This document shows, piece by piece, positions 13,665 to 19,319 of a stretch of 31,273 nucleotides of DNA. The notes under the pieces were generated by a model. That model searched no databases. It was not told the origin of the DNA and saw only the letters and a program-made list of their open reading frames with translations. Origin of the DNA: a virus (taxonomy: Duplodnaviria; Caudoviricetes); IMG/VR virus record IMGVR_UViG_3300030333_007961, positions 1 through 31,273 of that record, one strand, 5' to 3'. The translations under genes were made by a program, and so were the position numbers. The first letter of the stretch is position 1, and every line of letters begins with the position of its first letter.

Positions 13665-14255
13665 TTACTGCACCTCAAACTTTTCAAATAATGGAAGATT
13701 TTTATACCACTCCATAACTCTACCATATTTTTTTTCTAAAAGAAATTTAATCTCATCAGGCATCTGAGTCCAATCGCTCTTACGCCTCTTAAACTCATAG
13801 ACTGATGGATCAACATTAATACCCCAAAAATCCACCAAAGGTTTGATTCCATATTCGCTAAGAGCTTCATACCTCATAAACATCAAATTATATTGCCTAT
13901 CAGTATTATTAAGGTATCCATCAGCATGTTCTTTGTACTTATAGGCATCATATGGATCTACCAAATACTCTGCTAGAGTTTGATCCTCTCTATCCTCAAA
14001 ATACTTGTAGTCACCACCGCACTGTTTTGTGTGAACTTTATTAAAAGTTTCGCTTCTAGCAAAAGAACAGATTGTATAATCGTAAGGATTGCACATCAGA
14101 TAAACAACTTTAGAGCCTTTTTTAAAAACATTATAATTTGGATTTCTACAGTGATGATCAATTTGTGGATCATTAAAGTGGCCACCAAGAACTCCAATAA
14201 TAGAGTAAGTTCCTGTACATCCTTGTGTGATTAAAAAATTTTTCATGCAGATCAA
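13665..14255 (-). CDS. Sulfotransferase-like protein
   Basis: ITQGCTGT (PSB-loop-like), KVVYLMCNPYD, MFMRYEAL. Start may be ATG 14246. Confidence 0.6.
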   Translation of the reverse strand: MICMKNFLITQGCTGTYSIIGVLGGHFNDPQIDHHCRNPNYNVFKKGSKVVYLMCNPYDYTICSFARSETFNKVHTKQCGGDYKYFEDREDQTLAEYLVDPYDAYKYKEHADGYLNNTDRQYNLMFMRYEALSEYGIKPLVDFWGINVDPSVYEFKRRKSDWTQMPDEIKFLLEKKYGRVMEWYKNLPLFEKFEVQ

Positions 14256-14277: not shown

Positions 14278-14306
14278 TTTTTATTTCAAGTTTATTTGTG
14301 GAATGT
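14278..14306. repeat. 29-bp direct repeat, copy 2 (contains -35 TTGAAA on the minus strand)
   Basis: Identical to 13623-13651; followed on the minus strand by N16-TAAACT. Confidence 0.95.
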
Positions 14307-14327
14307 GAACTTTTCTTTAAGCAATAA

Positions 14328-14369
14328 GACAAAAAATACCCCCCCATAGAGGGGGATATTGATTTTGTC
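14328..14369 (-). terminator. Rho-independent terminator
   Basis: AATATCCCCCT-CTAT-GGGGGGGTATT-TTTT; two G-U pairs favour the minus strand. Confidence 0.8.
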
Positions 14370-14374
14370 GGAAT

Positions 14375-14685
14375 GCAAATCTTCTTTGAAGCCCCTTTAT
14401 ATTTTAATGCGTGGGGAGCGCGACAAAATGCGAGCGGAAAAAATCCGCGATAAACTACCACCTGTTTAGGGAGGCGAGAGGGACTGTGCTTAAAAACTCT
14501 ACTTACATTTATCTACCACAACACGCTGGGGCATTGCCATAGCAATTAACTATGAGTCCTTTACCTTGTCGCATAACAAGGCCGCTATACCTTTTGATAC
14601 GGGCTCAAGCCTACCCACCCTACTTTTCTTCGGTTATCTCAGGAAAACTCCACTGATTTCTCCCAGCGAGCTTAAAAGGATTTGC
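14375..14685 (-). ncRNA. Candidate large structured ncRNA, family unknown
   Basis: GC-richer stretch with no credible ORF; its ends pair with each other, with internal long-range helix and several hairpins, followed by a terminator. Confidence 0.6.
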
Positions 14686-14703
14686 GCCTTTTTGATATGA
14701 CTA

Positions 14704-15159
14704 TCATTCGTCGCCATCTTCGTCAATGTTTTTTTCTGAAGCCAGCGTTTGAGCTATAAAACATAGAGATTTTATATCTTGTTCTTTTATCTCAGCGGGG
14801 TCGCAAGTGTACTGACCCATTCCAACCACCTCACAGAAACTATTAACTATCAATGCAACCTCAGATGTAGTTGAGTAAGTTAAGTCTACATTTTGATTTA
14901 GCTGATCTAATTTTCTTTTTAAGATCCAAATTTTACCTTGCTCAGTCTCCGACTCGACAAGCATTTCGGCGCTAACCATATCATGTAGTGCAGCCTCGAT
15001 AGCAGCCTGATCTTTTTCTTTTTCTAGAGAAATAGGGCAAACAGAAACAAAGTTTTCTTTAATGCAAAAATATTCATTTTGCTTAAACCACTCAAATAAA
15101 CTTAAACTAGCATCGAAAACAGTCACCAAACACTTTATCTGTTTTAGACCAAAAATCAA
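14704..15159 (-). CDS. Hypothetical protein
   Basis: 151-aa ORF; start may be GTG at 15126. Confidence 0.7.
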   Translation of the reverse strand: MIFGLKQIKCLVTVFDASLSLFEWFKQNEYFCIKENFVSVCPISLEKEKDQAAIEAALHDMVSAEMLVESETEQGKIWILKRKLDQLNQNVDLTYSTTSEVALIVNSFCEVVGMGQYTCDPAEIKEQDIKSLCFIAQTLASEKNIDEDGDE

Positions 15160-15203: not shown

Positions 15204-15473
15204 ATGAAAGAAAACATCAAAAAGAAAACCAGAGGTCGCCCATCAGTCAATGTTAATTGGCCAGAAGGGAAAGAGTTTACCGCAAGAGACGTTTTAAAAG
15301 AAACTGAACAATCTACAGGAAGAGAGCTTACCCCAACTGCAATTAGGGTGAAAATAAGAAAGGCTCTTGAGGCTGGAGAAATTGAAAGAGTTGGAACTGT
15401 CTCGGAGCAAGCTGGTAGACCATTGTTCACCTACAAAAAAATTCAGAAGACCGAGACCAAACACTCTTGGTAG
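15204..15473 (+). CDS. Small winged-helix-like DNA-binding protein
   Basis: RGRP, FTARDVL, AIRVKIRKALEAGEIERVG, GRPLFTYK. Confidence 0.65.
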   Translation: MKENIKKKTRGRPSVNVNWPEGKEFTARDVLKETEQSTGRELTPTAIRVKIRKALEAGEIERVGTVSEQAGRPLFTYKKIQKTETKHSW

Positions 15474-16280: not shown

Positions 16281-16527
16281 AGACTTTATATCTTCTTTAG
16301 AAAAAGATGACTCGATTAAAGAAATACCATTTACTAAAAGGGCGGTGCTATTGAGGGAATCCGCTAAAAATTGTTGTAAATGCAACAGGAAGCAAAACGT
16401 GCAAAAATTTAAAGATTTCGTATTCGGCGCTGACGCTATGCTTTCGGAAAAAGACAAGCAAGACATAAAAAAACTTCTTGGCGAAATAGATGTAATTCAA
16501 GAAGACCAAATAATTTTACAATTATGA
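16258..16527 (+). CDS. Hypothetical protein
   Basis: 89-aa ORF with CCKC, overlapping neighbours. Confidence 0.65.
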   Translation: MRTQIDYRDFISSLEKDDSIKEIPFTKRAVLLRESAKNCCKCNRKQNVQKFKDFVFGADAMLSEKDKQDIKKLLGEIDVIQEDQIILQL

Positions 16528-16901
16528 TAGCGGGGCTTGGAATAGACGTTCAAAGCATCTTCCAAGTATCTAGGATGCTCGACAAGCACGGAGAAAAGTT
16601 TCTAGATAAAGTGCTAACAGAGAGGGAAAAAGATTACTGCCTCAATAAGCTCGACCCTAAAGAAAGTATTGCTGGCAAGTGGGCCGCGAAAGAGGCGGCG
16701 ATTAAGTCGTTAACTGATACAAGTTTTAAGGTGTTTAATTTTTTGGATGTAGAAATAATAAACAGTCCCAGAGGAAAGCCTTACGTTTTATTCAAAGACC
16801 AAAAAATACATTATGAGCTTAAATTCTTTTTATCTGTATCTCATTCAGAAGATTACGCTGCGGCGACATGCATAGCTGAAGGAAATGATTTACAAGCATA
16901 A
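16524..16901 (+). CDS. acpS: Holo-ACP synthase (phosphopantetheinyl transferase)
   Basis: GLGIDV, AGKWAAKEAAIKSL, GKP, SVSHSEDYAAA. Confidence 0.95.
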   Translation: MIAGLGIDVQSIFQVSRMLDKHGEKFLDKVLTEREKDYCLNKLDPKESIAGKWAAKEAAIKSLTDTSFKVFNFLDVEIINSPRGKPYVLFKDQKIHYELKFFLSVSHSEDYAAATCIAEGNDLQA

Positions 16902-17112
16902 GATCAACTCGTTAAGCGAGGAAGAACTTAGCGTTATAGTTTTCTTAATGACTCACTTAACGAATAGCAAAATAAAGTTTGACATTAGTATTTTGCCATT
17001 TTATAAACTCGCCTTTGTTCAGCACTTGCTAAAAATTGGTTGGCCCAACGTAAAAGATGAGCATAAAGATTTTTACAAGGAGCTATGCGTAAAATTTGAA
17101 TTAGAGGTATAA
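16885..17112 (+). CDS. Hypothetical protein
   Basis: 75-aa ORF between acpS and ACP. Confidence 0.6.
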   Translation: MIYKHKINSLSEEELSVIVFLMTHLTNSKIKFDISILPFYKLAFVQHLLKIGWPNVKDEHKDFYKELCVKFELEV

Positions 17113-17114
17113 AA

Positions 17115-17399
17115 ATGGATTACGATTCTATATCTGTTCACAAAGGTAGAGAAGAAGTTTATAAGATAGTTATAGAATCAATAGAAGATGTAGTTGTCGT
17201 GGCTGACGCTAATATAAATCTTGATACGGAACTCTCGACACTTAGCCTAGACTCCTTGGATGCTATTGATTTAATGATGGACATGGAGGAGATTCACTCC
17301 ATAAGTATTAATAACGAAAAATTTGATTTCGAAAAAATAAAAACCGTCAGGCATTTTGCTGATGCAATTTATGAAAACTCTACTTTTATAAAAAAATAA
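17115..17399 (+). CDS. acpP: Acyl carrier protein
   Basis: Acidic, LSLDSLDAIDLMMDMEE (DSL attachment site), IKTV. Confidence 0.9.
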   Translation: MDYDSISVHKGREEVYKIVIESIEDVVVVADANINLDTELSTLSLDSLDAIDLMMDMEEIHSISINNEKFDFEKIKTVRHFADAIYENSTFIKK

Positions 17400-18628: not shown

Positions 18629-18705
18629 GCGCCCATAGCTCAGTTGGATAGAGCACGAGTCTTCTAAACTTGGGGTCGGGGGTTCGAATCCCTCTGGGCG
18701 TACCA
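18629..18705 (+). tRNA. tRNA-Arg (UCU)
   Basis: Cloverleaf: GCGCCCA/TGGGCGT, anticodon loop CT-TCT-AA, GGTTCGAATCC, encoded CCA. Confidence 0.97.
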
Positions 18706-18707
18706 AT

Positions 18708-19319
18708 ATGAAACTAAAAGAGCAAATTTTAAAACTCAGAAAGAAAGGTTTTTCTTACAGTAAAATAGCTGAAAAATTAAATTGCTCAAAGTCCACAGTT
18801 GCATACTACTGCAATTCATCTACGAAACCTAAAATCATGAAGAGGAATAAGGTTTTGAGGAAAACCGTTGCAGGGATTTTGTACGGAAAGATAGGCAACT
18901 TTTTTCATTCTGTTGATCGTGCTTTACCTTACAAACTCAAAAAAGAAAAAAAGAAAAAGCAGACAAACAAACATTCTCCTCAACAGAGAAAGGTTCAAAT
19001 GTATAAATCAAGAGCTAATGATGGGATCAGAAGAAATAGATGTAAAAAAAATTTTGGGGTTAAAGATTTTTTAAATAAAGTTGGCGAAAACCCAACATGT
19101 TACCTAACGGGTAGAAATGTAGACCTTTCAAAAAAAGAAGAGTACCATTTAGATCACATTCACCCAGTCTCCAAAGGCGGATCTAATGAATTAAATAACC
19201 TTGGTCTTGCTTGCAGAGATGCAAATGTAGCAAAAGCTGATATGTCTACTGGAGAATTTGTAGATCTTTGCGCCGAAGTCTTACGGCATCATGGATTTAA
19301 AGTAACGCCACCTAAGTAA
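18708..19319 (+). CDS. HTH + HNH endonuclease (possible homing endonuclease)
   Basis: N-terminal SYSKIAEKLNCSKSTV; C-terminal CYLTG...LDHIHPVSKGGSNELNNLGLAC...N. Confidence 0.88.
   Translation: MKLKEQILKLRKKGFSYSKIAEKLNCSKSTVAYYCNSSTKPKIMKRNKVLRKTVAGILYGKIGNFFHSVDRALPYKLKKEKKKKQTNKHSPQQRKVQMYKSRANDGIRRNRCKKNFGVKDFLNKVGENPTCYLTGRNVDLSKKEEYHLDHIHPVSKGGSNELNNLGLACRDANVAKADMSTGEFVDLCAEVLRHHGFKVTPPK

Follow-up and report, generated by a model that had tools for sequence, protein, structure and literature searches.

The window analysed here, a stretch of 31,273 nt, is a 31-kb piece of a large phage genome and carries ribonucleotide reductase-like, sigma70 and glycosyltransferase genes and three tRNA genes. 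Genes are on the minus strand up to about 15.16 kb and on the plus strand beyond. Near this switch is a gap that is richer in GC than the window as a whole (0.449 vs. 0.373), in which an earlier note, made from the letters alone, had proposed a large minus-strand RNA; every string that it quoted was found in its place. As the note had supposed, the gap has no credible ORF: the lengths of 55 homologous members are distributed over the three classes modulo 3 as 18/23/14, with no conservation of frame, and a conserved ORF in the RNA region was ruled out by these length classes together with inspection of the alignment. The features of the locus are collected in Table 1. Among the genes around it, a sulfotransferase-like gene (13665-14255) lies between segment Y' and a kinase gene and is absent from two near-identical relatives (L001 and L002). 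At 16524-17399 the phage encodes an acyl carrier protein and a phosphopantetheinyl transferase (AcpS), both retained in relatives. An HTH-HNH endonuclease gene, possibly a homing element, was observed at 18708-19319, immediately after tRNA-Arg (18629-18702).

Table 1. Features of the RNA locus and its flanks in window coordinates; pairing is given as paired cells of the homolog alignment.
Feature	Position	Strand	Details
Divergent small DNA-binding-type protein	15204..15473	+	RGRP/GRP motifs; marks the strand switch
p151	14704..15126 (listed ORF to 15159)	-	about 140 aa; predicted N-terminal winged helix
Sigma70-type promoter	14698..14726	-	-35 TTGACG 14726-14721; -10 about 14703-14698; predicted start about 14692
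Optional 5' hairpin	14674..14692	-	AAAAGG/CCUUUU; 247/312 paired, 16 compensatory
P2 hairpin	14648..14670	-	conserved UGAGA-type loop; 93.5% paired; 4/7 pairs compensatory
Variable 5' multibranch domain	14564..14643	-	P3 stem, inner hairpins, hairpin 14581-14564
Multi-pseudoknot core	14449..14559	-	95.9% of 1634 paired; 19/31 pairs compensatory
Core helix Pa	14559-14555/14485-14481	-	
Core hairpin H	14554-14538	-	
Invariant CC/GG pair of core	14530-14529/14517-14516	-	
Core helix Pb	14524-14521/14489-14486	-	
Core helix Pc	14513-14507/14455-14449	-	
Core helix Pd	14500-14497/14480-14477	-	
Covarying hairpin after core	14434..14448	-	175/196 paired, 68 compensatory
3' domain	14362..14433	-	strand X 14429-14421 with 14370-14362, around the H-type pseudoknot
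3' H-type pseudoknot	stem 14421-14409	-	loop 14418-14412 with GGGG 14395-14392
Segment Y (putative guide)	14370..14392	-	23 nt; purine-rich; variable among phages; extra base 14388
Terminator-like hairpin and extension arm X'	14328..14369	-	CCCCC/GGGGG (14355-14339); X' 14334-14328; 230/240 paired
Segment Y' (downstream copy of Y, putative DNA target)	14300..14322	-	outside the coordinates of the earlier note

Homologs were collected by several routes. A first pattern scan gave 21 loci, five of them true. A search with the neighbouring protein gave four loci, in two of which the protein was 65% identical but the gap was better conserved, and a kinase search gave eight, all of which carried the RNA. 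With a pattern of the core, 27 of 41 loci in viral contigs, 59 of 117 in metagenome contigs and 1 of 53 in prokaryote genomes proved true. After removal of 11 partial sequences from a total of 126 hits, many of them on the same contigs, the remaining 115 were collapsed to 55 distinct members; a looser core pattern, scanned over 8 of 64 parts, gave seven matches in 120 loci and three new members. The family thus consists of 55 distinct members and three found later, from marine-type phage and metagenome contigs, with RNA lengths of 309-383 nt (roughly 350 nt). Pattern scans bias the invariant positions, which the members found through proteins and the later ones offset in part. In a scan independent of the RNA, made with the divergent small protein, the RNA was present within 5 kb at all 16 loci, three of which the pattern had missed. 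We regard it as practically certain that a real RNA is carried by a large group of uncultured ocean phages. The family of the linked protein p151 comprises 726 clusters at E<=0.001, and the RNA family is therefore likely to exceed the sample by far.

The RNA is near the minus-to-plus switch, as described for the window, at each of the loci found through proteins (16/16 and 8/8). It is single-copy in four long records and, by the covariance model, in two complete genomes; in one of the latter (G002), the record of which has direct terminal repeats, it is located mid-record, at 90 of 158 kb. Different genes follow the RNA, and in 6 of 37 loci the next one is convergent, so that the RNA is not a leader for one operon. 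The only true match in a prokaryote genome (L212) is a near-copy of a phage locus (L040) on a 44-kb contig of a MAG titled Pseudomonadales; this is probably a phage contig in the MAG bin, and it was not taken to indicate a host. A blastn search of cultured phages with the gap gave no match, and the terminase of a relative was at most 27% identical to the cultured phages listed.

The RNA appears to be transcribed from its own promoter. The -10 region is a poor match in this genome; 53 of 55 members have TTGAC in the 80 nt before the RNA, compared with 293 of 4041 background windows (7%), and in 39 of these 53 TAnnnT follows at a distance of 16-18 nt. The minus-strand terminator that had been noted after the RNA was upheld as a conserved hairpin, but in 10 of 55 members its U-tract is weak, with no more than 3-4 U, so the hairpin may be leaky. 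Its extension arm X' competes with strand X of the 3' domain. Expression of the RNA is weakly hinted at by seven pieces from RNA libraries (four runs, chosen with this stretch), available as contigs of depth 2-8 that give neither transcript ends nor strand. Four pieces, one per run, lie inside the RNA (14455-14686; 0-6 differences); the others are a short diverged piece inside the RNA, one from a relative over the hairpin and Y', and a 42-nt piece in p151. Nothing decisive was obtained from three runs of unrecorded kind and one further RNA run.

The lone sequence folds no better than many of its shuffled versions (MFE z = -0.89; 22 of 100 shuffles as good), but the homologs covary strongly, and the case for structure therefore rests on them. 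The many G-U pairs identify the minus strand as the RNA strand. Slid controls of the core were paired in 49.3% of cells at most, a comparison that favours the core, as its structure was derived from the same sequences on which it was scored. Ten pairs fell below E 0.05 under a tree-based null, nine of them within the core or the hairpin that follows it and the tenth in the 3' hairpin, and 28 positions of the core are invariant. At the 5' side, the first hairpin is missing in some members with a closer promoter; P2 carries a loop that we take to be a T-loop; and the closing stem of P3 (14643-14635 with 14599-14590) consists of helices paired in 66.5% and 81.8% of cells on a poorly registered alignment. 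A loop pseudoknot in the variable 5' domain, seen by eye, is probable. In six loci of a divergent subfamily (L258, L261, L265, L289, L296 and L330), Pb contains an additional hairpin, and a position pair that is C-A in the others is C-G.

The earlier fold was found to be largely wrong. Three of its elements held: the pairing GGACU/AGUCC, which is Pa (263 of 275 cells over 55 members, 24 compensatory), the hairpin at 14538-14554 (326/330, 120 compensatory) and that at 14434-14448. The hairpin at 14564-14581 was paired in 51 of 99 cells and varies by lineage, in poorly aligned columns. The long closing stem is not conserved (outer part 158/377, or 42%; inner parts 72%); its 5' strand more likely forms the local hairpin at 14674-14692, and its 3' strand falls within the 3' pseudoknot. 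The 7-bp helix CGCUGGG/CCCAGCG was paired in 329 of 385 cells but with a single compensatory cell and with one pair that is A-C in 43 of 55 members, and its 5' strand forms the hairpin at 14648-14670 (36 compensatory cells). The second proposed crossing, UAGGG..AGGC with GCCU-CCCUA, was paired in 173 of 261 cells, mostly in gapped columns, and is not conserved. Rows of this count for P3, X/B and the G-C pair of the pseudoknot were out of register and were left out, as was an alignment in which two proteins were mixed. Pb, Pc, Pd, P2 and the 3' H-type pseudoknot had been missed.

The suggestion of a standalone large phage ncRNA, possibly of a new class, is in agreement with the conserved promoter, the strong covariation and the lack of an Rfam match. 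Over the window there was none at gathering level, nor any up to E 10; with Rfam 15 (including GOLLD, ROOL, OLE and raiA) none was found to E 1 in five homolog loci and none over the RNA to E 5 in six more. The best Rfam E value, 0.054, was for an unrelated sRNA aligned to the terminator, with a score well short of the gathering cutoff. A tmRNA, which would have a tRNA-like domain and a tag frame, was rejected: neither ARAGORN nor Rfam gave a match at the locus, and two complete relatives have a separate tmRNA (L269:3676-4080, minus strand; L277:10910-11327, plus strand), for which ARAGORN reported unusual tag peptides. Inspection of the alignment also eliminated a Shine-Dalgarno/AUG reading of Y and HDV-like, IRES-like and circularly permuted RNase P folds. 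No reverse transcriptase (PF00078) was found in four records, two of them complete (the control gave a signal in 3 of 14), and RT-associated ncRNAs (retron, DRT, DGR) were rejected on this ground. A TnpB omega RNA was rejected likewise, as a TnpB-like gene occurs in only one of five records, 18 kb away; this gene (L271:8130-9635, plus strand; 502 aa, PHROG 506, labelled transposase) was observed in G002 only.

The 3' domain contains a key feature that the earlier note overlooked. The hairpin of this domain was paired in 132 of 149 cells (38 compensatory) and the loop pairing in 110 of 123 (4 compensatory); the pairing of strand X is taken from predicted folds (mean 8.6 pairs). Right after the pseudoknot comes segment Y, with a purine fraction of 0.93, and a copy of it, Y', is present downstream of the hairpin. 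Y' starts at a fixed 12-18 nt past the G-run of the hairpin, while the spacing from Y to Y' ranges from 53 to 73 nt. On a tree built without these columns, Y and Y' underwent 38 changes to the same letter on the same branch (of about 90 and 82 changes), compared with 3.9 +/- 1.9, and a maximum of 12, in a control with deranged columns; the columns that co-change most with Y are located in Y'. Y scored 15.0 against its own Y' and 8.1 against the Y' of other members. Its own Y' was the top match in 31 of 55 members, being displaced elsewhere mostly by close kin. The three later members also have Y and Y', scoring 12.5, 17 and 14.5 with their own copy, where the mean is about 8. Y is nearly always one base longer than Y', the extra base following its first 3-4. 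Loci with a convergent next gene have kept Y' as well.

Nothing in the RNA is complementary to the purine block of Y (duplex energy -7.02 with its own RNA vs. -7.10 with others), and no third copy or complement of Y was found in the two complete genomes, save one hit with four mismatches. The 50 nt after Y' are 75% AT, compared with 61% for the loci, and this stretch doubles as the promoter region of the next gene in most members. In pseudoknot-free folding, X drops on average from 8.6 to 5.1 pairs once the 3' arm of the hairpin is made, with a loss of at least two pairs in 37 of 55 members; in 53 of 55 members X' is predicted to pair with four or more bases of the upstream arm. In folds of the read-through transcript X pairs with the 3' block of the downstream copy in 23 of 55. 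Mismatches that an RNA-template hybrid tolerates arose 21 times vs. 14 (purines 18 vs. 8, pyrimidines 3 vs. 6), a weak result.

Two divergent genes for proteins of DNA-binding type are linked to the RNA. p151 was found at 39 of 55 loci, directly upstream of the RNA in 28 and 0.5-2.8 kb from it, on either side of the switch, in the other 11. Its model (pLDDT 76.9) gave winged-helix matches with Z 7-9 over residues 10-90; Foldseek returned no match at E<=0.001, and the best E value of a PDB sequence search was 0.095. The relatives of p151 form 593 clusters at E<=1e-10. The RGRP/GRP motifs of the small plus-strand protein are presumably AT-hooks, and its relatives are named 'predicted transcriptional regulator'. 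The complete relative G002 encodes DnaE, DnaB, DnaG, a clamp loader and a RecA-like protein; a bacterial-type replisome cluster with DnaG, DnaB and the RecA-like protein is located at L268-L269 (about 55-65 kb of G002), and its DNA polymerase III alpha is split into ORFs of 252 and 871 aa, which flank an exonuclease subunit. DnaA, Rep and RNase H were not recognised among the 146 of 165 G002 proteins scanned. Cumulative skew in the complete genomes G001 and G002 follows gene direction and gives no separate sign of an origin, and the two arms are very unequal. An AT-rich stretch of about 3 kb with many TTGAC words and no long ORFs (L271:18816-20000 and the start of L272; about 118.8-121.9 kb of G002) was also observed and is a candidate for an alternative origin or early-promoter region.

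From these comparisons the odds seem about even that Y acts as a guide that pairs with template DNA at Y'. The template strand at Y' would be the simplest common partner. An origin or primer RNA had been named earlier as an alternative; it becomes our leading reading because of the mirrored downstream repeat, which the earlier note lacked. It is possible, though somewhat doubtful, that this is an R-loop origin RNA at the strand switch. In the proposed sequence of events, the promoter-driven transcript would fold; transcription of the 3' arm of the hairpin is predicted to peel X partly off the 3' domain, and Y would be freed as the polymerase reaches Y'. Y would then hybridise with the template strand at Y', and the resulting R-loop would open the genome for replication initiation. 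The invariant core may bind an initiator protein or polymerase, and the DnaB/DnaG/DnaE replisome of the phage itself would presumably be loaded. The joint changes of Y and Y', the lack of an RNA complement and of a third copy, the fixed place of Y' after the hairpin and its retention before convergent genes, the predicted loosening of X, a single-copy RNA near the switch, the AT-rich stretch after Y', the bacterial-type replisome genes of G002 and the precedent of promoter-driven R-loop origins in T4 and ColE1 speak for this reading. Against it, skew tracks gene direction, the wobble test gave a weak result, the AT-rich stretch serves as the promoter region of the next gene in most members, own Y' is the best match in 31 of 55 members only, the pairing of X with the downstream block in read-through folds would suit an RNA-only switch, and no RNase H was recognised among the 146 of 165 proteins scanned in G002. 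It also leaves the core unexplained, as neither a specific sequence nor an elaborate fold is required for the R-loops of T4 according to the available part of the source (PMC3016281). A form in which the RNA targets its own genome would give the core a role as a ribozyme or RNA machine, with Y as a guide that invades and perhaps nicks the adjacent DNA copy, the extra base marking the site and the RNA serving as the replication initiator of the phage; we consider it quite unlikely.

Other explanations do without an origin. An RNA-only switch or self-processing element, in which the hairpin is read through and Y' swaps with Y in the 3' domain while the core, as ribozyme or sensor, matures the 3' end or gates read-through, is on the unlikely side. 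The predicted pairing of X' with the upstream arm and of X with the downstream 3' block, the weak U-tract, the 28 invariant core positions and the contig of a relative that spans hairpin and Y' are all consistent with such a switch, but it accounts for the 3' block of the repeat only, leaving the purine block without an RNA partner, and the genes downstream vary, with 6 of 37 convergent. An orphan structural RNA of the GOLLD/ROOL kind, serving as a scaffold, a multimer or a sponge for proteins, is likewise somewhat improbable; Y and Y' would then be two sites bound by one protein or trans-acting RNA, or repeats evened out by local gene conversion. Direct repeats 53-73 nt apart could be homogenised, and GOLLD and ROOL too are described as phage-encoded, standalone and rich in pseudoknots in the available part of the source (10.1101/2024.12.08.627333); yet fixed differences (the extra base and a mismatched middle) persist while the variable bases are mirrored, the two complete genomes contain no third copy or complement, and the RNA has about half the size of GOLLD and is not beside tRNA genes.

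The sequence layout itself suggests another possibility. In the guides of TnpB and Cas12 and in retron, DRT and DGR ncRNAs, a variable segment with a match in the DNA nearby comes after a pseudoknot, and the pseudoknot, variable 23-nt segment, fixed extra base and T-rich bases before Y' resemble such guide/target arrangements. RNA-guided binding or nicking of DNA by the core as ribozyme or by a protein such as p151, with its predicted winged helix, could then serve recombination, a packaging or genome-end site or transcription control. This is rather unlikely, as no conserved nuclease or reverse transcriptase partner was found (TnpB-like in one of five records, RVT_1 in none of four), the sole target is adjacent, and the RNA lies mid-record in G002. 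Descent from a group I intron or RNase P is very improbable. The P7 G-binding site of group I introns is an invariant G-C pair with a bulged A, a covarying P3 crosses P7, and the intron interrupts a gene, with exons and P1/P10; in RNase P RNA, CR-I and CR-V form the P4 pseudoknot. In favour of such a descent, the sequence AAGCACAGUCC is like the group I S element, and Pa truly crosses. The P3/P7 analogy of the earlier note failed on the helix taken as P3, which does not covary, and the P7-like helix is A-U in 38 and G-C in 15 of 53 members with no bulge. There are no exons, the RNA having its own promoter in 53 of 55 members and varying neighbours. RNase P RNA was rejected given the lack of an Rfam match and the AGUC strand, which pairs with the upstream strand of Pa and not with a CR-V-like strand.

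The RNA is real, and its class, with a putative self-matching guide, is apparently undescribed. The Fremin 2023 catalogue screened IMG/VR (PMC10690425), and its alignments may hold fragments of the RNA; four of its supplementary files gave no motif match, and no paper describing the RNA was found in the literature. A well-defined, strongly covarying class is added, and given the 593 clusters of the linked protein its gene seems to belong to the core set of a large group of uncultured phages. In contrast to most orphan RNAs, this one has a clue to function built in, a variable segment that coevolves with an adjacent DNA copy, so that matched mutants would offer a direct test of what it does. 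Should the pairing prove true, it would be a novel RNA-guided DNA transaction, for which neither a nuclease nor a reverse transcriptase partner was recognised, and possibly a programmable R-loop or origin module.

In comparison with known systems, GOLLD and ROOL (also OLE and raiA) are, like this RNA, phage-encoded, pseudoknotted, standalone and of unknown function; many GOLLD RNAs exceed 800 nt and lie in tRNA islands, whereas the present RNA has 309-383 nt and lies at a strand switch, and no mirrored downstream copy is described for GOLLD or ROOL in the available part of the source (10.1101/2024.12.08.627333). TnpB/Cas12 guides and RT-template ncRNAs share the order of a pseudoknot and then a variable segment with its match in nearby DNA, but here neither a conserved TnpB nor a reverse transcriptase accompanies it. 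In ColE1, an upstream stretch of the RNA reportedly pairs with a downstream stretch of the template (Masukata and Tomizawa, in 1990). ColE1 RNA II is a promoter-driven R-loop origin RNA that needs a G-rich stretch, as far as the available part of the source goes (PMC6317783). The likeness consists in a promoter-driven, folded RNA that hybridises with its own template by the origin, the hybrid being a proposal in our case. Sequence and fold are unlike, and the phage RNA has a coevolving 23-nt repeat in place of a G-run, four interlocked core helices and a terminator-like hairpin; no antisense RNA I was seen, the phage has its own replisome, and the origin role is putative. In T4 oriF and oriG, a promoter is followed by an AT-rich region, and a persistent R-loop of the transcript starts replication; such R-loops are sequence-independent, and about 100 bp are enough, according to the part of the source available (PMC3016281). 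A phage promoter upstream of an AT-rich region is shared by the locus studied here, where the R-loop is putative and the AT-rich stretch may be just the next promoter; in contrast to the T4 origins, there is a specific repeat and an RNA with a fold of 350 nt that is conserved.
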